Assembly (NCBI GenBank): GCA_964642835.1
Contig: CAZXQA010000001.1
Location: forward strand, 132,314 to 196,313
Reading direction: 5' to 3'
Source of the DNA: an uncultured Candidatus Saccharibacteria bacterium
GTDB lineage: Bacteria; Patescibacteriota; Minisyncoccia; Phycocordibacterales; Zambryskibacteraceae
DNA length: 64,000 nucleotides
Shown: in pieces, positions 17,370 to 56,244 of the stretch
How the letters are laid out: each line of letters begins with the position of its first letter
How positions within the stretch are numbered: position 1 is the first letter of the stretch
Position numbers and translations under genes: made by a program
Notes under the pieces: model-generated
Database searches by the model: none
What the model was told of the DNA's origin: nothing
The model's input: the letters and a program-made list of their open reading frames with translations, nothing else

Positions 17370-17381
17370 TTCGATATTGTT

Positions 17382-25752: not shown

Positions 25753-25945
25753 CTCTAGACGCTCCCCGTCTCGAGCACGGGAACTTTTAAGCTATTTCTA
25801 GGTTTGGGCTATCGTAAAATAAGGGTATTCTAGGACTCGGTTCGAGTCCCTGTCGGGCAGCCAACTCGTGAGGCGCACAAAACGCGTCAAAACAACGATA
25901 TTTTAGGTCTGCATAGAGCGCACCCGTCTAGGACTCGAATTTTTG
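25753..25945 (+). repeat. tRNA-Gln-derived intergenic repeat, copy 4 (long form, full tRNA 3' module)
   Basis: …GGACTCGGTTCGAGTCCCTGTCGGGCAGCCAACTCGTGAGGCGCACAAAACGCGTCAAAACAACGATATTTTAGGTCTGCATAGAGCGCACCCGTCTAGGACTCGAA. Confidence 0.7.
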
Positions 25946-26488
25946 TGTGTTATTTTTCTCAATCAACTCCTTCATGTGAGAAGCAATTGGTCCTCTAATT
26001 ACATTCTCTAATTTTAAAAGCTCTTCCAATCGTTTAAGACCTTCAACGGTATTCGACTTAAACTCAACCGTATAAAAATCTTTTAGATCGTCCACCCTCT
26101 CTAGATCTATTTGGTCCTCGCCCAGGTCGTATTGCCAGCCAGTACGGTTAAACTCAAATTCATATCGGTATTGATTTAAAAGATTTTCTTCTACAAATTT
26201 AAGAGCTTCTTCTTCAGTTTCAAAACCTTTCTTGAGAGGCACTACAGTATCTACCCCAATTTCTTTCTGTTCGTGAATTTTCACCGCCACCATTACATTT
26301 GAGTCATTCCAAATATTTTTCTGGTAGATTCTCACCCTCAGAAATTCGTCATCTAAACCCTTAGGGGGGTTGTAAGAGGAATAAATCTTGTCTCGTAAAA
26401 TATATTCACCCTTAAAGACGGCTCCATTTTCCTCAAGGGTTTTCCTTGTTGAATCTATTTCGGAAGAAAATGTTCTAGCTTCAATCAT
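25928..26488 (-). CDS. hypothetical protein, possibly CYTH-like (class IV adenylate cyclase / triphosphate tunnel fold), weak
   Basis: Start taken at MIEARTF (ATG 26488-26486; TTATAAT 9 nt upstream on the minus strand). The ORF-track N-terminal extension to 26656 looks non-coding. Acidic beta-rich composition. Confidence 0.3.
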   Translation of the reverse strand: MIEARTFSSEIDSTRKTLEENGAVFKGEYILRDKIYSSYNPPKGLDDEFLRVRIYQKNIWNDSNVMVAVKIHEQKEIGVDTVVPLKKGFETEEEALKFVEENLLNQYRYEFEFNRTGWQYDLGEDQIDLERVDDLKDFYTVEFKSNTVEGLKRLEELLKLENVIRGPIASHMKELIEKNNTQKFES

Positions 26489-27059: not shown

Positions 27060-29354
27060 ATGCATACACAAACATACAACGTAAAAGGAATGCATTGTGC
27101 CTCATGCTCATCTGTTATTGAAAAAACATTCAAGAAAGTCGAAGGTGTGCATTCTGCAGAAGTGAACTATGGTACTGAAAAAGCGAAAGTTTCTTTTGAT
27201 CCTTCCAAAACTAGTCCTCATGATCTCTCTAAGCACATCGAACCCCTTGGATATTCGCTCGAAGTACCTGAAACAGCGATGGAAATGGGTATGTCCGAAA
27301 GTGAGCATGCAGCCCATCTTGGACTTAATCAGTCAAAAAAGGAAAAGCTCGCCGAAGTCGCGGACATGCGAACAAAGGTGCTCTCTGCAATTCCTTTGGC
27401 AATCTTTGCAGCTCTCATTATGGGCTGGGACATTCTCGCTGAGTACAGCATTGTCCCTGCGATGAGCTATACACTCAAGGAATTTTTTCACCATCTCCTT
27501 CCAATATTTGCTACCTACATTCTTTTTGTAGTAGGTAAGCCATACCTTCTTGGTTTTTATAGATTTCTCCGATATGGCAAAGCGAATATGGATACGCTTA
27601 TTGGTATTGGTACGGTAGCCGCTTTTTTATACAGTTTCGCCGTCAGTGCTTTTGAGGATGTTCTTAAGCCATTTATTAACGTCGAATATCAATACTACGA
27701 TGTAACAATTGTAGTCATTACCTTTATCGCGCTTGGTAAATACCTTGAGGCAAGGTCTAAAATTAAAACAGGAGATGCCATCGAAAAGCTTCTCAATCTT
27801 CAAGCGAAAACGGCATTGGTTGTTCGTGATGGAAAGGAAATCGAGATTTCAGTAAATGATGTAAAGCACGGAGATTTGATCATTGTAAAGCCAGGAGCAA
27901 AAATTCCTGTTGATGGTGTGATCATTGAAGGCTCATCTTTTATTGATGAATCGATGGTTACAGGAGAGCCAATGCCTGCTCAGAAAAAGATTGGTGACAA
28001 TGTCGTATCTGGGACAATAAATACAAGTGGATCATTCACTTTTAAAGCCACTAAGGTTGGTTCAGAGACATTGCTCGCACAGATTATAAAGATGGTTGAA
28101 GATGCTCAAGGAAGTAAAGCACCAATACAGGCGCTGGCAGACAAGATATCAGCAATCTTTGTACCTATAGTTCTAATAGTCGCTTTTCTTTCCCTTGGTG
28201 CGTGGCTTATTATTGGGTCGCAATATTTGGGCTTTTCCCAAGCACTTTCATTCGGTCTTGTATCCTTTGTTGGAATCCTGGTAATAGCCTGTCCGTGTGC
28301 GCTTGGTCTCGCTACTCCAACTGCAATAATCGTCGGAGTTGGCAAAGGTGCTAAGGAAGGAATTCTTATCAAAGATGCGGCTACTCTCGAAAAACTCCAC
28401 AAGGTAAACACAGTTGTGGTCGACAAGACAGGAACAATCACCAAGGGAAAGCCGACACTTGTCGATATACAAAACTTCTCAAACTTGAAAGAGGATGAAT
28501 TTGTTTCAATTCTCGCTTCGCTTGAGAAAAAATCAGAGCATCCGATCGCACACGCAATCGTAAGCTACGCACAAGAGAAAAATATCTCAATATCTGATGT
28601 TCCAAACTTTGAAGGAATACAAGGAAAGGGTCTTAAGGGAAAGATTACAGACACTGAATATTTTGTAGGCAATGCAAAACTTGTGAGTGATCTCAAGATT
28701 TCATTTGACGCTAATAAGTTAGATGAGTTTACTTCACAAGGAAAAACACCAGTCATTCTTGCCACAAATGAAAAAGTTCTTGGTTTCGTGATGGTGGCAG
28801 ATGAAATCAAGACCGAGTCAGTAGAGGCTATTAAAAATCTTCACGCTCTCGGCATAAAGGTAGTTATGCTTACAGGAGATGATGAAAAGACTGCAAAGTA
28901 TATCGGGTCACTCGTCGGTATCGATGATGTTGTAGCTCATGTGTTACCGCAGGATAAGCTTGAAAAAATAAAAGAACTTCAATCGCAAGGTCGTATTGTT
29001 GCTATGGCTGGTGATGGAGTGAACGATGCACCTGCGCTTGCTCAGGCTGATGTAGGGATTGCGATGGGTACGGGTACGGATGTTGCGATCGAGTCTGCAG
29101 GCATCACACTTCTTGGCGGTGATATTTCAAAGCTTGTAAAAGCTATCAAGCTTTCCAAGATCACTATGCGAGGAATCAAGCAAAATCTTTTCTGGGCATT
29201 CGTCTACAACATTGTCGGTATACCACTCGCCGCAGGTGTTTTCTATCCAATCTTTGGTTGGCTTTTGAATCCTATCTTTGCTGGGTTAGCTATGGCGATG
29301 TCGTCAGTCTCCGTAGTGTCGAATTCGCTTCGCATTAAAGCTAAGAAATTATAA
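27060..29354 (+). CDS. copA: copper-translocating P1B-type ATPase
   Basis: 764 aa. N-terminal HMA (GMHCASCSSV), CPC (ACPCALGLATP), DKTGTIT, GDGVNDAP. Confidence 0.95.
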   Translation: MHTQTYNVKGMHCASCSSVIEKTFKKVEGVHSAEVNYGTEKAKVSFDPSKTSPHDLSKHIEPLGYSLEVPETAMEMGMSESEHAAHLGLNQSKKEKLAEVADMRTKVLSAIPLAIFAALIMGWDILAEYSIVPAMSYTLKEFFHHLLPIFATYILFVVGKPYLLGFYRFLRYGKANMDTLIGIGTVAAFLYSFAVSAFEDVLKPFINVEYQYYDVTIVVITFIALGKYLEARSKIKTGDAIEKLLNLQAKTALVVRDGKEIEISVNDVKHGDLIIVKPGAKIPVDGVIIEGSSFIDESMVTGEPMPAQKKIGDNVVSGTINTSGSFTFKATKVGSETLLAQIIKMVEDAQGSKAPIQALADKISAIFVPIVLIVAFLSLGAWLIIGSQYLGFSQALSFGLVSFVGILVIACPCALGLATPTAIIVGVGKGAKEGILIKDAATLEKLHKVNTVVVDKTGTITKGKPTLVDIQNFSNLKEDEFVSILASLEKKSEHPIAHAIVSYAQEKNISISDVPNFEGIQGKGLKGKITDTEYFVGNAKLVSDLKISFDANKLDEFTSQGKTPVILATNEKVLGFVMVADEIKTESVEAIKNLHALGIKVVMLTGDDEKTAKYIGSLVGIDDVVAHVLPQDKLEKIKELQSQGRIVAMAGDGVNDAPALAQADVGIAMGTGTDVAIESAGITLLGGDISKLVKAIKLSKITMRGIKQNLFWAFVYNIVGIPLAAGVFYPIFGWLLNPIFAGLAMAMSSVSVVSNSLRIKAKKL

Positions 29355-29356
29355 TT

Positions 29357-30364
29357 ATGAAAGCATACACATTACACGTATCGGGTACCCACTGTGCGTC
29401 ATGCAAAATCTTAATCGAAGATGTTTTAAATGATCAATATTATATTAGTAGTGCACAAGTAGATTTAAAAAATCAAACCTTACATATAGAAACTGTGAGT
29501 GAGAAATCTCCAGAAGAATTAGCAGTTTTACTTACTGAGAAGATAAGGCCAAACGGTTATACAGTATCAGTAGAAAAGGTTTTGATAGAAAAACAAAAAG
29601 ATGATGTTATCTGGAAAGCACTACCTATAGGGTTAGTATTCTTAATACTTTTCTTTGTATTACAAAAGTCAGGGCTATTAAATCTTGGTATCGGTGGTAC
29701 AACCACGCCTGCCACAAGTTTCATCATTGGGTTAATCGCATCTGTATCAAGTTGTCTTGCGGTGGTTGGAGGACTTGTTCTATCACTCTCAGCAAAAATC
29801 TCTCAAGACGATGTAAGTGATACAAAAACTTTCATACTTTTCCATATCGGAAGACTCGTTAGTTTTGCGCTCCTTGGCGGAGTGCTTGGCTTAGTTGGGA
29901 GTGCTATAGGAATCAGTTTTACTTTTACTGCAATCCTAGGGATTGTTGCGTCAACAGTAATGCTCCTATTGGGACTTAATCTAGTCGGAGTGTTCAAAAA
30001 GAATAAAGTTGCGTTACCTTCAGGAATTTTTAACTTCTTCCGCAAAATCGAACACAAGACTCTAACTCCTTTAATAATTGGATTTGCTACATTCTTCTTA
30101 CCTTGTGGCTTTACTCAGTCGATGCAAGTAGTAGCACTATCTAGCGGTTCATTTATTTCAGGATTACTTATTATGCTTGCGTTTGCTCTCGGTACGCTCC
30201 CAATGCTTTTGCTCCTGTCGTTTGGGGGAGCATCACTTGCTCATGGGAAACATGCACCACTTTTCTTTAAATCTGCTGGAGTGGTAGTGATAGGTCTTGG
30301 AATATTTGCACTGCTTGCAGGTCTGGCAGGACTCGGAATTATTAATCCTTTATTTAATATATAA
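29357..30364 (+). CDS. HMA-domain fused membrane protein (TauE/SafE- or DsbD_2-like 6-8 TM permease), putative copper handling
   Basis: 335 aa. N-terminal GTHCASCKILIE HMA domain, then a polytopic region with conserved Cys pairs (SSCLAV, LPCGF). Confidence 0.65.
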   Translation: MKAYTLHVSGTHCASCKILIEDVLNDQYYISSAQVDLKNQTLHIETVSEKSPEELAVLLTEKIRPNGYTVSVEKVLIEKQKDDVIWKALPIGLVFLILFFVLQKSGLLNLGIGGTTTPATSFIIGLIASVSSCLAVVGGLVLSLSAKISQDDVSDTKTFILFHIGRLVSFALLGGVLGLVGSAIGISFTFTAILGIVASTVMLLLGLNLVGVFKKNKVALPSGIFNFFRKIEHKTLTPLIIGFATFFLPCGFTQSMQVVALSSGSFISGLLIMLAFALGTLPMLLLLSFGGASLAHGKHAPLFFKSAGVVVIGLGIFALLAGLAGLGIINPLFNI

Positions 30365-30372
30365 TTAACTTT

Positions 30373-30768
30373 ATGAATAAAATCGCTTTATCAATTATTA
30401 CTATCGGACTCATTGTTGGAATTGGTGTTATTTTTGTAGGATCGAAGGATGGCGACAAAACTGCATTAACACAGTCTATGCAAAATGTTGAAGTAAAAGA
30501 TGGGATTCAATACATAACTATCGACGCTAAAGGTGGATATTCTCCAAAACTCTCTAATGCAAAGGCTGACATTCCTACCAAGTTGATCGTGAAAACAAAC
30601 GGAACTTATGACTGCTCTTCTTCACTTGTAATCAAGTCATTGGGATATCAAAAGATATTAGCGCAAACTGGAGAAGAGATGATTGATGTTGGAACACCTA
30701 AAGCAGGAGAACCACTTCAAGGAGTTTGTGGTATGGGGATGTATAGCTTCGTAGTTAATTTTAGCTAA
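30373..30768 (+). CDS. membrane-anchored cupredoxin-like copper-binding protein
   Basis: 131 aa. N-terminal TM, C-terminal C…GVCGMGMYSF Cys/Met cluster as in Cupredoxin_1-type proteins of cop operons. Confidence 0.45.
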   Translation: MNKIALSIITIGLIVGIGVIFVGSKDGDKTALTQSMQNVEVKDGIQYITIDAKGGYSPKLSNAKADIPTKLIVKTNGTYDCSSSLVIKSLGYQKILAQTGEEMIDVGTPKAGEPLQGVCGMGMYSFVVNFS

Positions 30769-32050
30769 TGCATATATTTTTTTCTTTTAGCAGTATTTTG
30801 CTTTTAAAACAGGTAAGCAGTTCTCGTTTCTCTTCAACTGTTCCATCTTTCAGTATGAATTTAGCGTAATCTCTAATATCCACGTCTTTAACTTGTATTT
30901 GCTGTTTAATACCTAAGATAGATTGCTGGAACTTCTTTATGCGCTCGACCTCATATTTTATTTTCTCTCTCATGCCTATTTCATTAAGATTTATATGAGT
31001 AAGGATCTTCACAAACTGTTGTATTAGGTCAGTTTCCTTGATATAACCACATTTGCAATCCTTGTCTTTAGATTTCGTGCATCCATAATAAACATGTCTG
31101 TTCACTGATCCGTCTTTCAGCTTCTTAAACTTTTCATCAGCACATATTCCAGAGCCACACAAAGCGCATGTCATTATTTTGGTGAACGCAAATTCTTTTG
31201 GTTCCTGTACCCGTAATATCTGACTTTTAATTTGCTGTTGAACTTGGTCAAATAACTCTTTTGAAATTATTGCTTCATGAACTCCTTTGTACCAAAGCCC
31301 ACTCTTTCTAGGATATTCAAATGAACCGTAATAGAAGTCGTTTTGTAAAAGAAGATAGATGTTGCTCAAAGTCAGACCCTTGTTTCCGTTAGGTGTTTTA
31401 AAGTTCAACTCGAACTTGAGCCAGTTATAAATTTTGCGACCGCTCCATTTCTCATAGGCAACTTTCTCAAACATCTTCCTTATGATTGGCCCTCGTTCTG
31501 GATCTATGTAAACATGACCTTTGCGGTCGACTCGCTTTTCATTGAGATACCCCATCGGAGCGGGGGCGGGCCATAAACCCATCTCGCAACGAGTCCTCAG
31601 CCCACGCTTCACGTTGATGCTCTTGTTGTCATTCTCAAGCTTTGCCTGAGAACAGAGAATCATTAATAGGAACTTCTCGCTTGGAGTATTCGTAAACGTC
31701 TGACCATAAGTGCGTATCTGAACCAGAAGTTTCTGATCCATTAAGTCCACTAGAGAACCTAGATCTCCCGCATTTCTACTCAACCTATCTGGATGCCAAA
31801 CAATGATTCCATTAAATCGCTGTCTTCTTAAGTCTTCCAAGATTTCTTTGAAGACTGGTCTTTGTCCTGAATCTTTTGCAGAGTGCGCCTCTCTTCGTAT
31901 GTCTATAACATCAAGATTTTCTCTTTCGGCTATGGCTAGCATTTCCTTAACTTGGGATTCGATTGAAAGGGCTTGCTTCTCGTCTTGTTCAGTGGATTTA
32001 CGAGCATAGAGAACGTACTTAACTCTTGGGGCTGGTTGTGTGGTTTCCAT
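30761..32050 (-). CDS. large serine recombinase (integrase/resolvase family)
   Basis: 429 aa. N-terminal resolvase catalytic domain (YVLYARKSTEQDEKQALSIESQ, catalytic Ser), recombinase domain, C-terminal Cys-rich zinc ribbon (CALCG…CTKSKDKDCKC). Confidence 0.9.
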   Translation of the reverse strand: METTQPAPRVKYVLYARKSTEQDEKQALSIESQVKEMLAIAERENLDVIDIRREAHSAKDSGQRPVFKEILEDLRRQRFNGIIVWHPDRLSRNAGDLGSLVDLMDQKLLVQIRTYGQTFTNTPSEKFLLMILCSQAKLENDNKSINVKRGLRTRCEMGLWPAPAPMGYLNEKRVDRKGHVYIDPERGPIIRKMFEKVAYEKWSGRKIYNWLKFELNFKTPNGNKGLTLSNIYLLLQNDFYYGSFEYPRKSGLWYKGVHEAIISKELFDQVQQQIKSQILRVQEPKEFAFTKIMTCALCGSGICADEKFKKLKDGSVNRHVYYGCTKSKDKDCKCGYIKETDLIQQFVKILTHINLNEIGMREKIKYEVERIKKFQQSILGIKQQIQVKDVDIRDYAKFILKDGTVEEKRELLTCFKSKILLKEKNICIS

Positions 32051-32365
32051 GTATATATTGGTGCCAGACCAGTAAACCCTGCATAGCTATGCAGACTAGG
32101 GAATTCGTCGCATACTCGCTATGGGCCTTAGCAAGATTGACCCACTAAGATATAATGTTATGGTGTGAAAGTTTAAGTGCTGTGGCCTAAACTCTTGGTG
32201 CGAATCAGGAGCATGGTCAAAAATCATAGGACATAAAGAACCCATCATTAGGGCATGTCCTATGTTATAGGGGGAAACTCCTATAGGGGGCTTCGGCCTC
32301 TCCTAGTGGTGGGCTTTTTGTTACAAAAAAACCACCATTAATTATTACTTTAATCTTAATAATTT

Positions 32366-32668
32366 ATGGAATTTTGGATCTGGGCACTACTAATTATCGC
32401 TCTGTACTTTGCGCCAACAATTACTGCTTACGATAAGAAAAAGAAGAATACTGGGGCAATATTTGCCCTCAACTTCTTTCTTGGTTGGACTTTGGTAGGT
32501 TGGGTGGTCGCGTTAGTTTGGGCTACTACCGTTGAGAAAGAAGAAAGGGTAGAGGTTGTAAGGGGATCATCAAGTATTGATGATTTACACAAGTTAGCAG
32601 AACTAAAAGAGAAAGGACTTATCAGCGAAGAAGAGTTCAACAAAAAGAAGCAACAAGTGCTTGGTTAG
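32366..32668 (+). CDS. superinfection immunity protein (Imm_superinfect) fused to SHOCT domain
   Basis: 100 aa. YFAPTITAYDKKKKNTGAIFALNFFLGWTLVGWVVALVWA matches the phage superinfection-immunity family. C-terminal SIDDLHKLAELKEKGLISEEEFNKKK is a SHOCT motif. Confidence 0.75.
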   Translation: MEFWIWALLIIALYFAPTITAYDKKKKNTGAIFALNFFLGWTLVGWVVALVWATTVEKEERVEVVRGSSSIDDLHKLAELKEKGLISEEEFNKKKQQVLG

Positions 32669-33216
32669 TTTTTCTGGGGCTTGTTTCTTTTCTCCTCATA
32701 TTCTTTCTTCCATTCCTCAAAGAGTTCTCTTGCCCTCTTCTCTCTATCGTGATCCATAACCTTTTTCCACTTGTCCATCCATTTTTGTGCCTGATTTGCA
32801 GCTTCTTCGTTTCTTATGCGATTTTTTTCTGTGATCGTATATTTTATTTCCTCTTCAATCTGGCGTTTCTTTACTCCTTCCAAGGTGGAGCGGAAGTGAG
32901 AGATCAGATCATCAGAATCAACCTTAAAGACGTATGGCCTTCTGAAATCAGGGTGCCTGTGACTCAACCAATACTTTGTGTACATAGGATCCTTTTTCTT
33001 GATGCCATCAAGAACATTACTTACGGCCACATCACTCACTAACCCAGTGCCAAGAGACAAGGCCTCGTTAACCTGGGAGAGAAATTCTTTATCTTCTTTC
33101 ATCCAGCGATAGAAGGTATTTCTTGAGACACCCACCTTTTCGCAAGCTCCCAGAATAAGGCCTGTTTTCTCAAGCTCCTCTATAAGTCTATTCACTAGTG
33201 CCTTTGTCTTTTTCAT
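32665..33216 (-). CDS. HTH-domain protein, possible phage terminase small subunit
   Basis: 183 aa. N-terminal ACEKVGVSRNTFYRWMKEDKEF homeodomain-like HTH, highly charged C-terminal coiled region. No large terminase subunit nearby. Confidence 0.35.
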   Translation of the reverse strand: MKKTKALVNRLIEELEKTGLILGACEKVGVSRNTFYRWMKEDKEFLSQVNEALSLGTGLVSDVAVSNVLDGIKKKDPMYTKYWLSHRHPDFRRPYVFKVDSDDLISHFRSTLEGVKKRQIEEEIKYTITEKNRIRNEEAANQAQKWMDKWKKVMDHDREKRARELFEEWKKEYEEKRNKPQKN

Positions 33217-34474
33217 AGAGGGCTTTTTCTCCAGTTAATTTTTCCCATCTCCGCACAATCAGGTCGCAGAACTTTGGTTCCAGTTCACAACCATATACTC
33301 GTCGTTTAAGGATCTCTCCCGCAATCAAAGTGCTGCCAGATCCCAAGAAGCTGTCTAAGATGATGTCATTAGGCCTTGTACAGCGTTTAATAGCCTTCTC
33401 ATGGAGTTCTGGTGGCTTTGAGGTGGCGTGTTCGTATTCTTTGGCACCAAGGCGTTTAACTGCCCAGATATCGCCGATTTCATCGAGCATGTCGTTGCCG
33501 CTGGTTACTTCCTTGTTCATGACCTCATTGAGATCTTGTCTCAAATCAGAAAGGAATGGAGATCCGCGAGTGCCGTAAGTGCACGGTTCATAGCATTTGT
33601 TGAAAGCGGAAGTTGGGGTGGGGTTGTGTCCGTTCTTAATCCAGAGACAAACTCTCTTGTTTGCGATACCAAGCTCCTGATACAGGGTTTGCATGAGCCA
33701 GATATAACGCTGGTCAGACCAGTAGAAGATATGAAGATCGTTCTTAGAGACTGACAAGGCATTCTCAAGAGACTGCCTGATGAGATTTTTATAATCCCCC
33801 TCTTTTTGATTGTCGTTTACTTTGCCTCCGTAGCCTTTCTTCTTGCTTATGCCTTTGTCGTAGTCGATGCCGATGTTGTAGATCGGATCGGAGTAGATCA
33901 TGGATGCTTTATCTTTCCCTAAGAGTTTCTTAAGGTTTTCTTTATCAGTTGAATCTCCACAGAGAACTCGGTGCTTACCGAGTATGATAAGGTCGCCTAA
34001 CTTTGTTGTAGGCTCTTTAATATTCTTAAGTTCCTTCTCAACGTCGAAGTCTTCTTCTGCAACTTCCTTTTCTCTATCGAAGATGTTGGCGAGCTCAAGT
34101 CCATCAAAGCCTGCGAATTCGAGGGTATCGAAATCGAAGGATTTAAGGAGTTCAAAGTCCCAATCACCGCCGAGCTTGTTTGAGGCAATCAGGTATTCTT
34201 TCGATTCTTCCACTGTGAGCTTGCGATTGGGGACACGGACGTCGATTAATTCTTCTCCACGCCCAAGAAGCTGAAGAGCTTTAATGCGCTGATGTCCGGC
34301 AAGGATAGTGCCATCAGTATCAACCGCAGGAATCTCTACAAGATTGTATTTCTTGAGACTTCTTTTAAGATCCGACATCTGTTTGTCGGTAATTGTGCGA
34401 GGATTTACCTCTTGGGGAACAAGGTCGTTAACACGGTAACAATCTGTACGCCATTCTAACTTTAAGTTTTTCAT
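33188..34474 (-). CDS. ParB-like nuclease domain fused to DNA N6-adenine/N4-cytosine methyltransferase (beta class)
   Basis: Start taken at MKNLKLEW (ATG 34474). ParB/Srx motif LAGHQRIKAL. MTase motif IV SDPIYNIG (DPPY-like) precedes motif I ILDSFLGSGSTLIAGE (beta-class order). Typical phage/plasmid orphan methylase. Confidence 0.85.
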   Translation of the reverse strand: MKNLKLEWRTDCYRVNDLVPQEVNPRTITDKQMSDLKRSLKKYNLVEIPAVDTDGTILAGHQRIKALQLLGRGEELIDVRVPNRKLTVEESKEYLIASNKLGGDWDFELLKSFDFDTLEFAGFDGLELANIFDREKEVAEEDFDVEKELKNIKEPTTKLGDLIILGKHRVLCGDSTDKENLKKLLGKDKASMIYSDPIYNIGIDYDKGISKKKGYGGKVNDNQKEGDYKNLIRQSLENALSVSKNDLHIFYWSDQRYIWLMQTLYQELGIANKRVCLWIKNGHNPTPTSAFNKCYEPCTYGTRGSPFLSDLRQDLNEVMNKEVTSGNDMLDEIGDIWAVKRLGAKEYEHATSKPPELHEKAIKRCTRPNDIILDSFLGSGSTLIAGEILKRRVYGCELEPKFCDLIVRRWEKLTGEKALYEKDKGTSE

Positions 34475-34823
34475 GACTTTAAAACCTATTTTGTTAATGC
34501 GTACAAACAAAAACACCAACTTTTTGAATTGGTGTTTTTGCGGGATAACGAAAGCAATAACAACAACCAAAAAGGCTGTAACTATTACTTCCGTCAAAAA
34601 GAATCGTACCTAGACGCACTTTCGTGCCGGTAATTAACGTTCTACGGCTTTTGACTTATAACCGAATCGATGCCGGAGCAGACCCACTTTCCGTGTAAGG
34701 GTCTCAAAGAAGACAATTGATGTTTTGTGAATGTACTACTGTAATTATAAGACATGTATTTACTAGTTAGTAACTAGAGTTGTTGATAAAGAAGGTGTAT
34801 GCTAATCCCAAGAAAAACTTAAT

Positions 34824-36500
34824 ATGTCAATAAAGATTGTCCACGAAGAAATAAAACGTTTCTTGGAAAATGACGAACCAGAGGTTCTTTGTCTTAAGGG
34901 AAAGTGGGGCGTAGGTAAGACATATGCTTGGAATTACTTTCTTAAGGAAGCTGCAAGGAAAAAAGGTTTGGGTATGAATAAGTACGCGTATGTTTCTCTT
35001 TTTGGGCTTAAAAGTTTAGAAGAAGTTAAGTATGCATTATTTGAATCAACCGTTGCTGATGAGGCAATAGTAGATGGGCCAAGTGCAACAACCTTAGATA
35101 AGGGATTCACTTGGGTGAAAAAGAACTTGAGAAAGGGAGCTGGCTTGGTTAGTCAGAATCCTCTGGTTAAATCTTATATAGGGGAAACAGAGAAAAGCCT
35201 TTTCTTTCTAGTTAGAAATCAAGTTATTTGTATTGATGACTTAGAGCGAGCTAGTGAAGGTCTCGATATTAAAGATGTGTTTGGCCTAATTTCTTATTTA
35301 AAAGAGCAAAGGAGATGTAAGGTTGCCTTGCTTCTTAATGAAGAGAAGATTGCAGATAAAAGTGTTTATGATGAATTACTAGAAAAAGTGGTAGACACCA
35401 AGCTTGATTTCAGCCCAACTCCCTCAGAAGCATCTGATATTGTATTTCCATCACCTTCGGACAATCAAAAGTTGATACATGATAACTGCGTTAAATTAGG
35501 TATTACGAATATCAGAATCATCAAAAAGATTGAAAGGATTATTAAAAGATTTGAGGAAATTTTTGGAAAGAGTAGTTTACTAATGCCCCAAGTCGTTCGT
35601 TCAGGAACATTATTTGCATGGTCTATATATCAACCAAAAGAAGCTCCTCCTTTAGAATTTCTTGGTGATTTTGGGAGATTGAACAATTTGGGTCTGGAAA
35701 CAGACAAAGTTCCTGAATCTGAAAAGGAATGGCAACAGCTAATGAGAGAATATGGCCACTTTCAAATTGATGATTTTGACAAACAGATACTAGAAACCAT
35801 TAAAAGTGGGTACTTTAACAAAGATGTCTTACTGATTGCCGGGAAAAAACAGCTTGATGAATTCGATGAGGCGCAGGTAAAAAATGAATTTAGCCAAGCT
35901 TGGGACTTGTATCACAATTCTTTCGATCGCAACGAAAAAGAGGTGCTGGATGCAATTTATTCTTCTGCTAAGAAAGCTGCAAAGTTTATTGAGCCGTCAA
36001 ATATGGATGCAACAGTCGTATTTCTTAGAGAATTCGATAGAAAAGAGGAAGCTGAAGATTTGATTAAAACCTTCATCGAAGCTAGAGGAACTGACAAGGA
36101 AGTGGTTGATTTTGAAAACTCTTTCTTTTCAAGAGAGCTGAAAGATCAAAACTTCGCCACAGCATTAAAAAATAATGCAGAATCATTTAAGGATTCTCGT
36201 AGTCCTGCTCAGGTTCTAGAAGATGTGTATTTAAAAAGAGGTTGGAATCCAGAAGATGTACATCTTATTAACACTTTAACGAGTGCTGATTTCTATAACC
36301 TTTTTAAAAAAGCTAAAGGCATTGAAATGCATAGAATGGTGAAGATGGCTTTGGATTTTGGGAAATATACTGATGCCTCTGTAGAAATGAAAAGCATTGC
36401 CGAAAAAGCAATGCAGGCTTTGGAGAAAATTGGAAAAGAGACTCGGCTTAATGCCAAACGAGTGTCGCTTCGTGGAATTAAGGTTACCCCTGAAAAATGA
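34824..36500 (+). CDS. KAP-family P-loop NTPase
   Basis: 558 aa. LKGKWGVGKTYAWNYF Walker A and VICIDDLERA Walker B with KAP-type spacing, long helical C-terminal region. Confidence 0.7.
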   Translation: MSIKIVHEEIKRFLENDEPEVLCLKGKWGVGKTYAWNYFLKEAARKKGLGMNKYAYVSLFGLKSLEEVKYALFESTVADEAIVDGPSATTLDKGFTWVKKNLRKGAGLVSQNPLVKSYIGETEKSLFFLVRNQVICIDDLERASEGLDIKDVFGLISYLKEQRRCKVALLLNEEKIADKSVYDELLEKVVDTKLDFSPTPSEASDIVFPSPSDNQKLIHDNCVKLGITNIRIIKKIERIIKRFEEIFGKSSLLMPQVVRSGTLFAWSIYQPKEAPPLEFLGDFGRLNNLGLETDKVPESEKEWQQLMREYGHFQIDDFDKQILETIKSGYFNKDVLLIAGKKQLDEFDEAQVKNEFSQAWDLYHNSFDRNEKEVLDAIYSSAKKAAKFIEPSNMDATVVFLREFDRKEEAEDLIKTFIEARGTDKEVVDFENSFFSRELKDQNFATALKNNAESFKDSRSPAQVLEDVYLKRGWNPEDVHLINTLTSADFYNLFKKAKGIEMHRMVKMALDFGKYTDASVEMKSIAEKAMQALEKIGKETRLNAKRVSLRGIKVTPEK

Positions 36501-36512
36501 TATAATTTAACT

Positions 36513-36761
36513 ATGGCAAAAAAGGGAAATTATCATATAGTTCCTGACTCAAATAACGGCTGGGCGGTAAAAAGAGAAGGTGCTGAAAAAGTTAGTGCTT
36601 TCGCCGCTACTCAGAGAGGCGCAGAGAAGTTGGCTAAAAACTTTTCTGCCAATCATGGTGGAGGTGAGGTAGTGATACATCGTAGAGATGGAAAGATCCG
36701 AGATAAGGATACTGTTTATCCTGCCTCAGACCCATTTCCTCCAAGAGATCGACGACACTAA
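36513..36761 (+). CDS. DUF2188 domain protein
   Basis: 82 aa. YHIVPDSNNGWAVKREGAEKVSAFAATQRGAEKLAKNFS…EVVIHRRDGKIRDKDTVY matches the DUF2188 consensus across the whole length. Confidence 0.7.
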   Translation: MAKKGNYHIVPDSNNGWAVKREGAEKVSAFAATQRGAEKLAKNFSANHGGGEVVIHRRDGKIRDKDTVYPASDPFPPRDRRH

Positions 36762-36772
36762 TTCTAGTTTAG

Positions 36773-37660
36773 ATGAAAAAAGCTCTTGGTTTTGTTCCTG
36801 AATTAAAGTTTGGTAGAAATATAAATCGCAGGATAAAACTTACTGATAACATCTATCTGTTGCCAGATGAGAGCACTTTGGCTGTCGATTTTCGTTCTGA
36901 GATAGAGAAGAAGGGATATAAGCTTTCAGATGGCTCAGTTCTCTATTTTCAAGGGAGCTTAAAAGCAGATGGTACTTTGTATGAAATATTTCAAGGCTAT
37001 GCTCTTGCTCTAACTTTTTTCAACCCAAAAGGTCAAGCAACATGCAGAGCCTTTAAAGATTTAGATACTGAGGAAGGTATTCAGCTATTTATTGATGAAT
37101 ACGACAAATTTGGTTATGAGAAAGAAGATGTAATCACCCTTAAACCTTCCAAGGTAAAAGATGTTAAGTCTATTTATTCCAAAGTAGAGAAGCAATTGGA
37201 GATTAAAGATTTTAACCCCTTGAGAAACTCGCTAGAGTTCTTTATTTTGTTTTTAAATGAGAGAAAAATTAGAACTCGCTTATTGTATCTAAGTATTTGC
37301 TTAGAAAGTGTCTTGTTGGAAGGGGCGACTGAAGGTCTTTCTTATAAGCTGAGTATGCGTTGTGCAAATCTTTTAAATGCTTTCTATAAAGGTGTAAATA
37401 TGGAATCCGTTTTCGGTGAGATCATGAGCGGGTATGAACTTCGCAGTAAGATTATTCATGGAGATGATTACAACAAAGCATCGGAAAAAATCATAAGAAG
37501 AAGAGGTGGCAATTCTACTGAGCTGGATCATGTTATAAATCTTGAAGCGGTAGTGAAGGACGTGCTTTCAGTAATTTTCTCAAATCAGAGCTTGTATGAT
37601 TCTTCAATAGAAAGTGGATTGGGTAAAATGATTGATCAAAAATATATATTAGATTGTTAG
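36773..37660 (+). CDS. hypothetical protein with C-terminal HEPN-like motif (Rx4H) - candidate Abi/RNase component
   Basis: 295 aa. All-helical C-terminal half with YELRSKIIHGDDY (R-x4-H). Confidence 0.4.
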   Translation: MKKALGFVPELKFGRNINRRIKLTDNIYLLPDESTLAVDFRSEIEKKGYKLSDGSVLYFQGSLKADGTLYEIFQGYALALTFFNPKGQATCRAFKDLDTEEGIQLFIDEYDKFGYEKEDVITLKPSKVKDVKSIYSKVEKQLEIKDFNPLRNSLEFFILFLNERKIRTRLLYLSICLESVLLEGATEGLSYKLSMRCANLLNAFYKGVNMESVFGEIMSGYELRSKIIHGDDYNKASEKIIRRRGGNSTELDHVINLEAVVKDVLSVIFSNQSLYDSSIESGLGKMIDQKYILDC

Positions 37661-37695
37661 TTGTAACAGTGTATCTTTTTTGATAATACTTAAGA

Positions 37696-38211
37696 ATGAT
37701 CAAAAAAATATTACTCATTAGCTTCCTGGTTTTATCTCCAGCTTTTGCTTTTGCCGCAAGCGGAGCATGTTCAGGTCATGGAGGGGTAAGTTGCAGTGCG
37801 GGAGCAGATTCGGACGGAAGTGTGATTTGTAATGACGGTTGGAGGAATAGTAGTGTCTCATATTCTTCAATGGTTATGTGTGGCGCACCTTCAAGTTCAA
37901 AACCTAAGGAAATTGTTCCTGTGGTTAAGCCTGAACCAAGGCCAGAGCCAATAACTGTTCCAACTCCTAAGCAAGAAATCCCGAAGCCTAAAGAGATCCC
38001 AGTTGTTCAGCCTCAAGTTTCAAAACCCGAGGTTGTTAAGCCGGTTGAGAAGAAAGTAACTCCAACACAAGTGGTTCAACCTAAAGCCACTACAACCCCT
38101 GTAAAAACAGTGGAATCAAAGCCTATTCAGGAAGAGGTAAAACCTGTTGAGGTGCCTGCACAGGTTAAAAAGAGAGGGATTATCTCAAGATTCTTTAGCT
38201 TCTTTTTCTAA
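37696..38211 (+). CDS. secreted Cys-/Pro-rich repeat protein
   Basis: Signal peptide, Cys-rich head (GACSGHGGVSCSAGADSDGSVICNDGW), then PKPEP/PVVKP repeats. Confidence 0.45.
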   Translation: MIKKILLISFLVLSPAFAFAASGACSGHGGVSCSAGADSDGSVICNDGWRNSSVSYSSMVMCGAPSSSKPKEIVPVVKPEPRPEPITVPTPKQEIPKPKEIPVVQPQVSKPEVVKPVEKKVTPTQVVQPKATTTPVKTVESKPIQEEVKPVEVPAQVKKRGIISRFFSFFF

Positions 38212-38222
38212 AACCTAACCAC

Positions 38223-38241
38223 TGTCACTTTTGTCACTTTT
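38223..38241 (+). repeat. TGTCACTTTTGTCACTTTT direct-repeat motif (left boundary of repeat copy 5)
   Basis: Identical 19-mer recurs at 55154-55174, directly abutting repeat copy 7. Confidence 0.5.
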
Positions 38242-38874
38242 ATGAAGTCAACTTTTCGTCCGTTAACTGAATTGGCAGAAAGTAAGGAACGTCTGAATGC
38301 TCTGCTCTTCCTAACTCTTGGTTCAAAGTATTTGAATTTGGTGCACAACGTTTTAGGAGAGAGTATAAAGTCTGGTAACCCTCATATGATTGTTTCAGAT
38401 GGCGATTCATCTTGGGAAGAGTACTACCAGAAAACCAAATGGAGTGATTTCTTTATTATTGAGCCCACCTTATTTTGTCTTTATCACGGACTCGAGCTCA
38501 CCATTAAGGGCCTTACTCTTTTGGTAAAAGAAGAGGATATGGAGCCAGTTCATAGTCTTTCTAAACTTTATAACAAGCTACTGGCTTTAGAAGAAGTTCC
38601 TAACGATATAAAAGATGTTATAGGTAAATACATTAGTGCTAGTGAAAAAGAAAACTTCATTTCCAGCTTTCTACTAGAAAATGGCAAGGACATTGATGGC
38701 CTCTACGAATCTTTAAGGTACCCAGCGGATAAAAATCTTCAGAGTTTGAATAGCTACTTTCAGCTACATTATAAGGAGGCTCAGGCACTAGAGGAGTACC
38801 AATCAATCCTTCAAGACATAAGGAGCTTGCAATCCTCAGCTACTAAATTTTACAAAGCATATTCCCAGGAATAA
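38242..38874 (+). CDS. hypothetical protein nested inside repeat copy 5 (candidate cargo / mobility protein)
   Basis: 210 aa, helical, no recognisable motifs. Sits exactly where the cargo-free copy (55154-55305) has TTTTGAAGCGCTCGAGACCC. Here TTTT-ATGAAG…(gene)…TAATATGCGCTCGAGACCC. Confidence 0.5.
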   Translation: MKSTFRPLTELAESKERLNALLFLTLGSKYLNLVHNVLGESIKSGNPHMIVSDGDSSWEEYYQKTKWSDFFIIEPTLFCLYHGLELTIKGLTLLVKEEDMEPVHSLSKLYNKLLALEEVPNDIKDVIGKYISASEKENFISSFLLENGKDIDGLYESLRYPADKNLQSLNSYFQLHYKEAQALEEYQSILQDIRSLQSSATKFYKAYSQE

Positions 38875-38877
38875 TAT

Positions 38878-39062
38878 GCGCTCGAGACCCGTCGTTTTAG
38901 ATGCTAAAATTAAGCTAATTCCGTCAAGCGGGGCTTAACCGTTTACGGTTCGAGCTCGAGTCGGCCAGCCAACTCGTGCGATGCTCGAGACGCGTCTGCA
39001 CATCGTTTTCTTAGCTCTGCATAGAGCGCACCCTCTTGGGACTCGAACTTTGGTATACTTTT
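38878..39062 (+). repeat. tRNA-Gln-derived intergenic repeat, copy 5 (GCTCGAGACCCGTCGTTTTAGATGCTAAAATTAAGCTAATTCCGTCAAGC form + promoter module)
   Basis: …CGGTTCGAGCTCGAGTCGGCCAGCCAACTCGTGCGATGCTCGAGACGCGTCTGCACATCGTTTTCTTAGCTCTGCATAGAGCGCACCCTCTTGGGACTCGAACTTTGGTATACT. Confidence 0.7.
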
Positions 39063-39065
39063 GTT

Positions 39066-53344: not shown

Positions 53345-53417
53345 TGCCCGATCGTCTAATGGTAGGACGCCCGCCTCTGGAGCGGTTAATTGGGGTTCGA
53401 GTCCCTGTCGGGCAGCA
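53345..53417 (+). tRNA. tRNA-Gln (anticodon CUG)
   Basis: Identical to the 9249 tRNA except the anticodon arm (CCCGC-CTCTGGA-GCGGT). U1-A72, G73. Same 6-nt upstream and 10-nt downstream flanks as the other copy. Confidence 0.8.
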
Positions 53418-53460
53418 AGCACAAAATAAAACACCCTATAATGGGTGTTTTATTTTGTGC
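53418..53460 (+). terminator. perfect 18-bp-stem hairpin immediately 3' of tRNA-Gln(CUG)
   Basis: GCACAAAATAAAACACCC-TATAAT-GGGTGTTTTATTTTGTGC. Confidence 0.5.
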
Positions 53461-53545
53461 TCTGAAATCCGATAGACAGGGACGAGAAAGCCGGAGTGCG
53501 ACGGCACGAGGCGGGGTCGCGAGCTTTTTCAGCAGAAAAAGACTT

Positions 53546-53653
53546 GTGACCGAGAGCGTACTCGCGGTCCCTGTCGGGCAGCCAACTCGTGCGAGGTTAT
53601 TGCGCACGAGACGCGTATGGAACACAAAACCGCCGTCTAGGCGGTTTTGTGCC
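53546..53653 (+). repeat. tRNA-Gln-derived repeat, copy 6 (GTGACCGAGAGCGTACTCGCGG + tRNA 3' module with loop-containing hairpin) + downstream hairpin
   Basis: GTGACCGAGAGCGTACTCGCGGTCCCTGTCGGGCAGCCAACTCGTGCGAGGTTATTGCGCACGAGACGCGT. The first 49 nt are identical to copy 9 (56136). Followed by CACAAAACCGCCGTCTAGGCGGTTTTGTG. Confidence 0.7.
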
Positions 53654-53673
53654 AAAAGCGATATAATTAAATT

Positions 53674-54438
53674 ATGAAAATTATCAGCTTAAATACATGG
53701 GGTGGACGTGCAGGAAAGGAAGGCCTACTTTCTTTTTTTGAGAAGCATAAGGATGATACGGACATCTTTTGTCTTCAGGAGATTTGGTCAGCACCCTATA
53801 GCCATTTAGAGGGATACAAGGCGGGAGGAAAGGAAATTGATCATTCGGAGATCATGGTACATGGGCTTCAGGAAATTACTGAACTCCTGTCTGATTTTGT
53901 TCCATATTTTCGGCCTCACCACGGTGACCATTACGGTCTTCTTATGCTCGTAAGAAAAGGTCTTGGAGTTAAGGTTGAAGGAGAAATTTTCGTACACAAG
54001 CACAAGGGCTATATGCCTGAGGGTGATATTGGAAACCATGCGCGCAATATTCAGTTCATTACAACAGAGTTTAATGGTTCGCCTTTAACAGTTATTAACT
54101 TTCATGGCCTTTGGAATGGACAAGGCAAGGGTGACTCGGAAGATCGTTTGAATCAATCGAATAAGATAAAAGAATTCATTGAAACTTTGCAGGGAAATGT
54201 AGTGATGTGTGGAGATTTTAATCTTCTTCCTAACACCAAAAGTATTCAGATTCTTGAAGATATTGGCTTGAAGAACCTTATTAAAGAAACTGGCATTACT
54301 TCTACAAGAACTTCTCACTACACCAAGCCAGAGAAGTTTGCTGACTACACCTTTGTTTCTAAGGATATAGAAGTGAAAGATTTTAAAGTTCTGCCTGATG
54401 AAGTTTCAGATCATTCACCAATGATGCTCAAGTTTTAG
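53674..54438 (+). CDS. endonuclease/exonuclease/phosphatase (EEP) family protein
   Basis: 254 aa. ISLNTWGG, CLQEI, GDFNLLPN, SDHSPM. Confidence 0.8.
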   Translation: MKIISLNTWGGRAGKEGLLSFFEKHKDDTDIFCLQEIWSAPYSHLEGYKAGGKEIDHSEIMVHGLQEITELLSDFVPYFRPHHGDHYGLLMLVRKGLGVKVEGEIFVHKHKGYMPEGDIGNHARNIQFITTEFNGSPLTVINFHGLWNGQGKGDSEDRLNQSNKIKEFIETLQGNVVMCGDFNLLPNTKSIQILEDIGLKNLIKETGITSTRTSHYTKPEKFADYTFVSKDIEVKDFKVLPDEVSDHSPMMLKF

Positions 54439-54442
54439 ATTT

Positions 54443-54766
54443 ATGAAAAAACGTTACAAAATAGTTGTATATGTTCCTGAAGATCATGCAGATAAGCTAC
54501 GCGAGGCCATGGGTAATGCGGGTGCTGGCCAGATAGGAAATTATTCTCATTGCACTTTTACCCTTAAAGGCACTGGTCGTTTTAAACCCGAAGAAGGAGC
54601 GAACCCTACTATCGGGTCAGTAGGTAAACTTGAAGAGGTTTCTGAAGATCGTATTGAGACTGTGTGCGAAGCTGACAAGCTCAAGGCAGTACTTAAGGCA
54701 ATCAAAGATACTCACCCTTATGAAGAGCCTGCCACTGATGTATATCCTATAGAGATTTTCGAATAA
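54443..54766 (+). CDS. small conserved protein, possibly PII/CutA-like fold (HPYEEP motif)
   Basis: 107 aa. …YSHCTFT.KGTGRF.P…AIKDTHPYEEPATDVYPIE, reminiscent of the CutA/NIF3-insert HPYE.P motif. Weak. Confidence 0.35.
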   Translation: MKKRYKIVVYVPEDHADKLREAMGNAGAGQIGNYSHCTFTLKGTGRFKPEEGANPTIGSVGKLEEVSEDRIETVCEADKLKAVLKAIKDTHPYEEPATDVYPIEIFE

Positions 54767-54768
54767 AC

Positions 54769-55047
54769 ATGTCAGTGAATCTTCATCAAAAATGCATATC
54801 ACTTCTAGAAGCCTTTAAATCAGGAAAGCTTGGTCAAACTGTGATGCCAGAAGATTCTAATCCTGGCTTCTCAGATAAAGAGTCTGAAATGCGAATAGCA
54901 TATTTCACTCTTCCAATGGCGCTCAATTATCAGCGTGATAGCTATAAGCTTTGGGAAGCCGCCCTAAAAACTTTTAATGATCCAGAAACAAGATTTGTAT
55001 TTGATACGGTAAAAGTCTCTTTCCCGACGCTCTACCCGAAGGAGTAG
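54769..55047 (+). CDS. hypothetical protein
   Basis: 92 aa ORF, 3 nt after the previous stop. No motifs. Confidence 0.35.
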   Translation: MSVNLHQKCISLLEAFKSGKLGQTVMPEDSNPGFSDKESEMRIAYFTLPMALNYQRDSYKLWEAALKTFNDPETRFVFDTVKVSFPTLYPKE

Positions 55048-55153
55048 ATCAAATATGGTATGCAGACGCTACGATCCCTCCGCATATCGAATTTCACGAT
55101 CTGACTGCCTTGGGTGAGCTGATCAAAAAGGAGGAAGTGGAATAACCTAGGGG

Positions 55154-55305
55154 ACTGTCACTTTTGTCACTTTTTGAAGCGCTCGAGACCCGTCGTTTTA
55201 GATGCTAAAATTAAACTAATTCCGTCAAGCAGGGCTTGGTCCACTAGGGTTCGAGCACGAGACGGCCAGCCAACTCATGATAGGTTATCGCGCTCGAGAT
55301 GCATC
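55154..55305 (+). repeat. tRNA-Gln-derived repeat, copy 7 (cargo-free counterpart of copy 5)
   Basis: CTGTCACTTTTGTCACTTTTTGAAGCGCTCGAGACCCGTCGTTTTAGATGCTAAAATTAAACTAATTCCGTCAAGCAGGGCTTGG…GGGTTCGAGCACGAGACGGCCAGCCAACTCATGATAGGTTATCGCGCTCGAGATGCATC. Confidence 0.7.
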
Positions 55306-55502
55306 TGGGCTGTACCAGATTAATTCTGCATGAAGCGTGTTGTTTAGAATTTGAATATAAAAAGAAAAAGACCCAGCATATTTCAGCTGAGTCTACTTAC
55401 ACATTCATAAGATTTCTCCAATCTCGCCCGCCGTCGCGCGCCTCTTTCTGCGCCGCGACGGGCTTGCCGTTCCAGAAGGGTCGAACGGCTGACCTTGGCG
55501 CG

Positions 55503-56200: not shown

Positions 56201-56244
56201 ATACAAAGCTTTTATAAGCTCGTAAAGAGCGATATACTTTTGCC

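Follow-up and report, generated by a model that had tools for sequence, protein, structure and literature searches.

A 210-residue HEPN-superfamily protein encoded in a variable slot at the end of a tRNA-Gln-associated serine-recombinase island

In staphylococci, SCCmec and other staphylococcal cassette chromosome (SCC) elements encode the large serine recombinases CcrAB, form composite and pseudo-SCC arrays at the 3' end of rlmH, and carry resistance and defense cargo. In streptococci, accretion of integrative and conjugative elements (ICEs) involves cis-mobilizable elements (CIMEs), units flanked by attachment (att) sites that lack recombination genes, lie in tandem with autonomous relatives and are presumed mobile in trans or through accretion. 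The tycheposons of Prochlorococcus are defined by a tyrosine-recombinase lineage, with a large serine recombinase in a minority and shared replication hallmark genes; these islands lie at specific tRNAs, where full or partial tRNA copies mark successive integrations, the newer pushing the older inward (Hackl et al., bioRxiv 10.1101/2020.12.28.424599). Here, we analyze a window of 64,000 nucleotides (contig CAZXQA010000001.1, positions 132,314 to 196,313; positions below are those of the window) in which an open reading frame (ORF) for a 210-residue protein fills a junction at 38 kb that is closed in a second copy at 55 kb. We read this gene as a HEPN-superfamily passenger in a variable slot, next to and inward of the conserved right end of a serine-recombinase island that targets tRNA-Gln, and the 55-kb copy as the empty-slot module of a recombinase-less derivative, with a probability of about 0.75.

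The locus resembles SCC in its serine-recombinase islands at the 3' end of one conserved gene, its tandem arrays with short direct repeats, its recombinase-less 'pseudo' units with the same ends, its variable resistance and defense cargo, and a recombinase whose best NCBIfam relative is CcrB. It differs in its target (tRNA-Gln, not rlmH), its single recombinase gene, its probable host in the candidate phyla radiation (CPR), its ∼190-nt promoter-carrying boundaries, and the LOOT RNA motif and methyltransferase–helix-turn-helix (HTH) pair that accompany the recombinase. With tycheposons it shares tRNA-adjacent islands, partial tRNA copies, degenerate remnants and adaptive or phage-interference cargo. 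However, the host phylum is another, and the hallmark set consists of recombinase, LOOT, methyltransferase and HTH protein; no tyrosine recombinase, primase or helicase module was found in Pfam scans of the island genes examined, nor a tyrosine recombinase in a phmmer search of 203 array-locus ORFs with an approximate XerD query. Unlike the CIME/ICE systems, it has no conjugation genes and its recombinase is of the serine type; mobilization would be by analogy. Identity with an integron, a miniature inverted-repeat transposable element (MITE) or a tycheposon was rejected, as the defining features of each (IntI and attC; inverted repeats; tyrosine recombinase and replication module) were looked for and not found. 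What the locus does show, observed mobility aside, are the features of a tRNA-integrating island with a large serine recombinase.

A slot filled at 38 kb and closed at 55 kb

Within the window, the exact 20-nt motif CTGTCACTTTTGTCACTTTT occurs only at 38222-38241 and 55155-55174 (chance expectation 0.01), with no further copies at up to three mismatches. The exact 36-nt sequence GCGCTCGAGACCCGTCGTTTTAGATGCTAAAATTAA, which starts the downstream repeat, occurs twice (38878-38913 and 55179-55214; expected 0.00). Pairwise alignment reveals collinear flanks: 26 of 27 nt are shared on the 5' side (38221-38247 versus 55154-55179), outside which the segments upstream of the two motifs have no similarity, and on the 3' side the two copies can be aligned for ∼165 nt, with 88% identity over 101 nt. 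The 633-nt ORF begins right after the 38-kb motif and stops 3 nt ahead of the repeat; at 55 kb, TGAAGC alone separates the two flanks. A first-pass annotation of the DNA letters had claimed that the ORF occupies precisely the junction closed in the other copy. The exact collinear flanks and the 6-nt linker bear this out, and the motif itself starts one base further left (38222) than the annotation had placed it. The repeat consists of a left part, here of class A, and a right part:

38222-38241, + strand: TGTCACTTTT x2 direct-repeat motif, inner landmark of the right end and left edge of the variable slot
38242-38874, + strand: 210-residue HEPN-superfamily gene, read as a passenger in the terminal slot
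38878-38972, + strand: class A module, 95 nt (nhmmer E 6.5e-25); its 3' part is a diverged tRNA-Gln end, ...GGCCAGCCA
38973-39065, + strand: right part (nhmmer E 7.5e-20) comprising the hairpin region CTCGTGCGATGCTCGAG, the third of the GCTCGAGAC motifs, TCTGCATAGAGCG and TGGTATACT
55155-55174, + strand: second copy of TGTCACTTTT x2, at the closed junction

The interval between motif and class A varies likewise among related loci (numbered with the prefix L):

55-kb copy of the window (w55a): closed, linker TGAAGC
L026: closed, linker TGGAGC
L046: closed, linker TTGCCT
L062: closed, linker CAGGGGT
L066: closed, linker TGAGGT
L027 and L049: closed, with one TGTCACTTTT upstream of class A
Window at 38 kb: open, HEPN gene
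L064: open, unrelated 56-residue gene, ATG 1 nt after the motif and TAG abutting class A
L041: open, unrelated 154-residue membrane protein with its own TATAAT

At the five closed junctions with the double motif, 6-7 nt separate it from class A, and at least five copies are empty. Because unrelated occupants and empty copies share these tight edges, the slot is a recurrent point of gene-content change. In L003, a two-gene recombinase-less unit at tRNA-Gln(CTG), the adjacency of HEPN gene and class A is kept, including the TAATATG spacer.

Gene loss offers a different account of the same junctions: the 55-kb copy would derive from a 38-kb-like arrangement by removal of the HEPN ORF from codon 3 to 4 nt past its stop, and the slot would be a site of repeated deletion. 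In its favor, each of the two class A copies has the other as its closest relative (36 nt exact, 88% over 101 nt), the linker TGAAGC starts with the TGAAG of the ORF's aTGAAG (homologues also begin with MK), and the adjacency of HEPN gene and class A is old, being common to L003, whose homologue is 77% identical at the amino-acid level. However, closed linkers with no HEPN history are alike or different (TGGAGC, TGAGGT, TTGCCT, CAGGGGT), so TGAAG need not be a remnant, and in L041 and L064 the slot is filled, with edges just as tight, by unrelated genes. We consider deletion a possible but doubtful explanation.

The 210-residue protein is assigned to the HEPN superfamily

Searched by itself, the 210-residue protein matches no family significantly in Pfam, PADLOC or NCBIfam, and PADLOC holds no model for it. 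Its close relatives place it: 22 of 24 match Pfam HEPN (PF05168, best E 4.2e-8), an assignment that is precomputed for several of them. Structurally, the AlphaFold model built from the relatives' alignment is all-helical (predicted local distance difference test score, pLDDT, 79), and the predicted structure is a four-helix up-down bundle of the HEPN type. A Foldseek search against the PDB returned generic helical bundles only, none at E<=0.001, and a profile search of PDB sequences gave no meaningful match. Residues E85, K89 and H104 are invariant across 89 diverse relatives.

The family comprises 300 clusters at 50% identity, scattered over Neisseria, Moraxella, Marinobacter, Pseudomonas, Bacillota, Flavobacteriia and CPR. 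In Moraxella, Rodentibacter and a flavobacterium (Flavobacteriales), the homologue directly follows hsdS in a type I restriction-modification (R-M) operon and is followed in turn by hsdR, Fic or GmrSD. Closer homologues free of the repeat are found in L002 (53% identity), L055-57 (59%, adjoining tRNA-Cys) and L058-60 (a conjugative-type element). Genomic neighborhoods of the homologues contain no conserved partner gene, save hsdS in distant genomes. A tRNA-Gln-linked island holds the protein in the window, L003 and L053, the latter two being the relatives with tRNA-Gln found beside it. These contexts recall restriction-linked HEPN proteins of the PrrC/RloC type: the fold is all-helical, homologues have hsdS on one side and hsdR, Fic or GmrSD on the other, and the window gene sits in a defense-rich island by PDC-S49, PDC-S16 and a methyltransferase. 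Unlike PrrC and RloC, the 210-residue protein has no ATPase domain, no Rx4-6H motif and no conserved partner gene. Its gene is read as a passenger, most probably of the defense or toxin type.

The first-pass annotation had instead proposed that motif, ORF and repeat form an autonomous element, that the 210-residue protein is a novel mobility or homing enzyme, and that the 55-kb copy is a MITE-like derivative. The ORF does fill a junction closed elsewhere, and the gene is linked to tRNA-Gln in the window, L003 and L053. However, the remote-homology and structure searches that the annotation suggested lead to HEPN and to none of the nuclease or recombinase families of mobility enzymes. The annotation had named orthologs in repeat-free contexts as evidence against itself; these exist in L002 and L055-60 and in R-M operons of distant phyla, and by the annotation's own standard they refute a mobility role for the protein. 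Other genes occupy the same slot, and both this island and every sister island examined encode a genuine recombinase. Around 55155-55340 there are no terminal inverted repeats, and all copies are in direct orientation, so the 55-kb copy is not MITE-like in the strict sense. The model is thus scarcely credible, while the annotation's own alternative, passenger cargo of the element, is upheld.

The recombinase-bearing island, its relatives and its boundary modules

The island that holds the 210-residue gene spans 25.85-38.97 kb and ends on the right in TGTCACTTTT x2 followed by class A:

25847-25957, + strand: copy c25, a partial tRNA-Gln 3' end and right part, the left junction of the island
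27060-30768, + strand: copper-resistance cargo, namely a P-type ATPase (CopA), an HMA-DsbD_2 protein and a cupredoxin (Pfam)
30761-32050, − strand: large serine recombinase (PF00239, 1.3e-22; PF07508, 7.8e-15; PF13408, 1.3e-5)
32184-32301, + strand: LOOT RNA motif RF03000 (75.7 bits versus a gathering score of 46.4)
32665-34597, − strand: small HTH/terS-like protein (32665-33216) and N6_N4 DNA methyltransferase (Pfam, PADLOC)
34824-38211, + strand: defense-type cargo, namely a KAP-like NTPase (PDC-S49), DUF2188 (PDC-S16), a 295-residue protein and a 171-residue proline-rich protein

The recombinase gene lies 6 kb upstream of the 210-residue ORF. Its product combines Resolvase, Recombinase and zinc-ribbon domains, is nearest to the NCBIfam families CcrB (best) and XisF, and is the island's candidate integrase. 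Homologues number more than 8000; among the 120 listed, identity is 75-92%, and the named ones are all patescibacterial (Moraniibacteriota, Parcubacteria, Pacebacteria, Colwellbacteria).

Four further recombinase loci (L062, L064, L066 and L076) end in class A on the same side, and the recombinase is present in every sister island examined. L062, L064 and L066 have tRNA-Gln and a right part at one end and TGTCAC x2 with class A at the other; between these ends lie the cargo, then the recombinase with LOOT beside it, the N6_N4 methyltransferase and the small HTH protein. L076 has class A and a right part on the same side, without the TGTCAC motif. The HTH–methyltransferase pair recurs in all four loci. 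L064 shares its cargo, the CsoR-CopA-DsbD-cupredoxin set, with the window, and other sister islands carry Shedu, Hachiman, type I R-M, BsoBI and DUF6119. In L066, two recombinase-bearing islands stand in tandem (1-797 and 10001-11326) downstream of one tRNA-Gln(TTG), divided by TGTCAC x2, class A and a right part (3349-3178).

LOOT lies next to the recombinase in all four loci scanned. In the window it is 134 nt upstream of the recombinase gene and divergent from it, with a like position in L064 (9707-9836) and L066 (9712-9836); in L062 (11395-11529) it is just downstream, on the same strand. LOOT thereby appears to be a component of the island family. No published description of this family or of the LOOT association was found in the searchable literature, in which text on LOOT amounts to one mention.

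Sequence comparison of the window (27060-32050) with L064 (10001-15047) gives 92% identity for CopA, 79% for DsbD and 79% for the recombinase. Core proteins of the window and its relatives are at 62-69% (FtsE), 48-55% (FtsX), 53-59% (DnaX) and 58% (SerS). That the island proteins are far more conserved than the core proteins points to horizontal, and recent, spread of the island. Among nine viral-contig loci of IMG/VR with recombinase relatives, none has class A or tRNA-Gln.

The repeat that follows the 210-residue ORF is the module that bounds islands inserted at tRNA-Gln; its tRNA-Gln-like character, which the first-pass annotation had recognized, reflects derivation from tRNA-Gln. The module consists of an optional TGTCACTTTT x2, the 95-nt class A (a promoter-like 5' region and a diverged tRNA-Gln 3' end) and a hairpin/promoter part. 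Every boundary unit is on the + strand, in low-GC DNA (island GC ∼40% versus 52% in the core) that follows one or the other tRNA-Gln gene of the window. Left parts fall into classes A, B and C, each of which finishes in a copy of the tRNA-Gln 3' end, ...C(C/G)CAGCCA. Fifteen aligned class A copies, drawn from 14 sources, measure 93-97 nt. The 5' promoter-like site of class A reads TCGAGA-17 nt-TGCTAAAAT (38882-38910, with TAAAAT preceded by TG), and a promoter scan matches all three copies tested. The right part is built from a hairpin CTCGTGCGACGCACGAG, a GCTCGAGACGCGTC motif, TCTGCATAGAGCG and an extended -10 promoter, TGGTATAAT or TGGTATACT, which lies 6-13 nt before the next ATG; at 38 kb, TGGTATACT is 6 nt ahead of the ATG of a DHH phosphoesterase (39066). 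The GCTCGAGACSCGTC block has 13 matches in the window, all on the + strand versus 0.72 expected, and 12 of the 13 are inside boundary units.

9249-9320, + strand: tRNA-Gln(TTG), anchoring the first low-GC array, which runs to ∼42.4 kb
53345-53416, + strand: tRNA-Gln(CTG), anchoring the second array, which runs past 64 kb
38878, 55179, 55929 and 62367, + strand: class A copies
11178, 18635 and 25761, + strand: class B copies
Near 53.54 and 56.13 kb, + strand: class C copies
53568-55146, + strand: body of a recombinase-less unit, with a right-part junction (53568-53660), an Exo_endo_phos gene, 107- and 92-residue ORFs and a start-less ORF fragment
55179-55340, + strand: class A (55179-55272) and right part, right end of the same 1.7-kb recombinase-less segment
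62367-62518, + strand: class A and right-part boundary
9476-9552, 11178-11334, 17325-17377, 18635-18783, 25761-25923, 55929-56020, 56158-56232 and 61551-61623, + strand: other boundaries

Relatives reveal how these parts are divided between units. The right part stands directly 3' of the real tRNA-Gln CCA end in L003, L045, L062 and L066. Class A stands at the tRNA-Gln-distal end, finishing ...CCAGC, in L003, L051, L062, L064 and L066, so that these five have tRNA-Gln at one end and class A at the other. From this placement we assign each left part to the unit upstream of it and each right part to the unit that comes after. In L003, L041, L046, L048, L051 and L062, the non-repeat flank begins right after the ...CCAGC of the left part. 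Because occupied sites read ...CAGCCA|ACTCGTG and distal ends ...GGCCAGC|native flank, the crossover is placed at about CAGC. We infer that the boundaries are att junctions, class A being the putative P arm and core of attR, and the right part the putative P' arm of the next unit with a leaderless-type promoter.

The 55-kb copy, which the annotation had taken for a cargo-free element at 55154-55305, is the right end of a 1.7-kb gene-bearing unit that starts at 53568 (53.57-55.27 kb) and contains three to four genes and both island ends, with no recombinase. A recombinase of its own is found for the 25.85-38.97 kb island, and not for this unit or most small units. The proposed relation between an autonomous and a non-autonomous copy does exist among units with common ends; it is defined by the recombinase and not by the 210-residue ORF. 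By analogy, the 55-kb unit is a non-autonomous derivative in the sense of the streptococcal CIMEs and pseudo-SCC. Its last coding region before the motif (54769-55146) looks broken, with an ORF at 54769-55047 and then a start-less fragment in another frame ending at 55146.

Instead of a DNA recombination site, class A could be a small RNA gene, its own promoter driving a ∼60-nt tRNA-like RNA that ends in CCA and serves, for example, as decoy or antitoxin for the adjacent HEPN protein. The promoter-like site at the 5' end of every class A copy, the constrained length of 93-97 nt, a local AACCG...CGGTT hairpin that by eye survives base changes, and the position directly after the HEPN gene in the window and L003 would fit this idea. 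However, RNAalifold gives -1.79 kcal/mol with no compensatory pairs, the single-sequence folds being mutually inconsistent; there is no Rfam or ARAGORN match, most class A copies follow unrelated genes, and most HEPN homologues have no class A. This makes a small RNA very unlikely. A cloverleaf pseudo-tRNA was rejected by hand inspection, as the T-stem and acceptor strands of class A are not complementary.

Several further observations concern the boundary sequences. Class B partial tRNAs (11178-11334 and 18635-18783) match the tRNA-Gln 3' end and downstream ...CCCGCAGCCAACTCGTGATAGGTTATCGCGCTCGAGA of L045 (8376-8484), not the tRNA-Gln of the window, which suggests an origin of the class B units in another host. 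In the IMG/VR phage contig L052, the single contig of that collection matching the 20-mer, TGTCACTTTTGTCACTTTT occurs at 1600-2000 (− strand) among many GTCAC-type repeats and without class A. In the IMG/VR contig L070 (∼170-203, − strand), one of the nine viral loci above, TGTCAC x2 / TGTCACTTTTGTCACTTTT is directly upstream of a TGCTATAAT promoter. These contexts hint that TGTCACTTTTGTCACTTTT may be an operator-like binding site of phage or element origin.

Both arrays of the window begin ∼150 nt past their tRNA-Gln and contain copies of TCCCTGTCGGGCAGCCAA. Neither tRNA-Gln gene encodes CCA (both read GCAGCAA), and the ∼150 nt between each gene and the first partial-tRNA repeat, GCAGCCAA, include a terminator-like hairpin (9321-9475 and 53417-53567); occupied sites of other genomes read ...CAGCCA|ACTCGTG directly, without this spacer. 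The gene orders dnaX...tRNA-Gln(TTG) and ftsEX...tRNA-Gln(CTG) are common to the window and its relatives; together with the names attached to recombinase homologues, they suggest that the window comes from a patescibacterium. Within the first array, between boundaries c11 and c17, lies a polysaccharide/glycosyltransferase block (11353-17292, − strand) with a core-like GC of 52-53%; boundary c17 keeps the promoter part alone. The interval 61657-62367 lies between two repeat copies, as annotated. The minus-strand gene annotated at 55503-55928 does belong to a unit between boundary copies, a small one (55369-55928) with a strong promoter-like site on the minus strand (TTGACA-17-TAAGAT with TG, 55928-55900) at one side and a terminator (55394-55369) at the other. 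The ORF as drawn is doubtful and probably shorter, because its start lies upstream of the -10 of that promoter.

Small units in the window and in metagenomic arrays encode housekeeping-type enzymes (NUDIX, Ham1, LigT-like proteins, kinases, methyltransferases, VanY, PNPOx). In L045 (4285-8484, − strand), single-gene units for GNAT, NUDIX, SGNH hydrolase, 2-oxoglutarate (2OG) oxygenase and NUDIX proteins follow tRNA-Gln(CTG). A phmmer screen of the 203 array-locus ORFs with the window recombinase and an XerD query of approximate sequence, a weak screen, found no recombinase beyond the window's own.

Such arrays could instead represent an integron-like platform, in which recombination would take place at the near-invariant GCTCGAGACCCGTCG block itself, whether or not TGTCAC x2 accompanies it, and a recombinase acting in trans would capture and shuffle single genes with leaderless promoters at tRNA-Gln. 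As in integrons, a more distant comparison than SCC elements, tycheposons or CIMEs, the units are co-oriented and mostly single-gene, site-like boundaries come right after stop codons, and the cargo is of the small-enzyme or toxin-like kind. In the one-gene arrays of L045, L041 and L050, stop codons lie 0-5 nt before the block and the ATG 6 nt past a -10-like hexamer. The confinement of the block to boundaries (the 13 + strand matches), the precise slot edges around three unrelated genes and the scarcity of recombinases among the 203 ORFs also fit. Unlike integrons, however, neither the tRNA-Gln anchor nor the array loci have an adjoining IntI-type integrase, there is no attC-like R''/L''-L'/R' symmetry, and each unit has a promoter and the array a tRNA anchor. 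The block fits a promoter consensus and may be a mobile promoter co-duplicated with genes, and no single cassette turned up with the same edges in two different arrays. We regard this platform as unlikely. The same holds for its broader version, in which the boundary modules (GCTCGAGACCCGTCG block, TGTCAC x2 and tRNA-like core) would form a CPR gene-capture platform, a serine-recombinase analogue of the integron at tRNA-Gln, with the HEPN slot as one capture point and LOOT as a working part.

A probable passenger gene in a tRNA-Gln island: proposed mechanism and meaning

The preferred reading, a HEPN passenger at the end of a tRNA-Gln-targeting island, builds on directly observed features: the anatomy of the junctions, the HEPN assignment, the recurrence of the architecture around recombinase islands, the tRNA-Gln anchoring and the variability of the slot. 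In the corresponding mechanism, the recombinase would integrate a circular form (class A-core-right part) at the 3' end of tRNA-Gln, with crossover at or next to CAGC. Arrays would grow by repeated integration next to the tRNA, plus decay, and slot content would change through recombination or deletion at the module edges. Recombinase-less units, including the 1.7-kb unit, would move in trans or by accretion only. TGTCAC x2 and the three GCTCGAGAC motifs may be protein-binding sites, the junction promoters may drive leaderless transcripts, and the HEPN protein may act in defense.

Several points weigh against this reading. No excision or integration event, circular form or same-species pair of empty and occupied sites was observed, and the recombinase is linked to the att junctions by association; exact-protein look-ups for strain polymorphism yielded nothing but short identical Logan contigs, broken off at the repeats. 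Large serine recombinases typically use att sites of ∼50 bp, whereas ∼190 nt with three direct GCTCGAGAC motifs are conserved here, which recalls arm-type sites and is atypical for this enzyme class. Large serine recombinases also do not normally recombine attP with attL, and tandem arrays, which would need events of the attP x attL type, are therefore not trivially explained. In L045, all that parts most units is the promoter-like 5' region of class A, 38 nt in length and placed 6 nt ahead of each ATG; these separators have no CCAGC or tRNA-like core, and integration at a tRNA core leaves them unexplained, a gap that an integron-like capture mechanism could fill. The TGAAG common to the 55-kb linker and the ORF start hints at deletion as the event at the slot, or may be coincidence. 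As for the protein, the window sequence scores 15.9 bits against PF05168 (E 0.015), under the cut-off of 22, and the canonical Rx4-6H motif is absent from the family: after R159 comes YPxDK, and none of the next 6 residues is a His. The family may have a variant active site or a non-catalytic HEPN domain. Since variant and non-catalytic HEPN domains are known, the missing motif does not contradict the HEPN fold; it is RNase activity that it argues against.

For the biology of these islands, the 210-residue gene is thus a passenger of an ordinary kind rather than a new mobility protein, while the recombinase marks a widespread tRNA-Gln-targeting island family that carries defense systems and copper resistance. 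LOOT, an orphan Rfam motif, gains a genomic home. The conserved end module can be used as a landmark for delimiting such islands in metagenome-assembled genomes, and the stacking of mini-units with promoters in their junctions illustrates a way in which the very small genomes of CPR bacteria may maintain flexible gene content.

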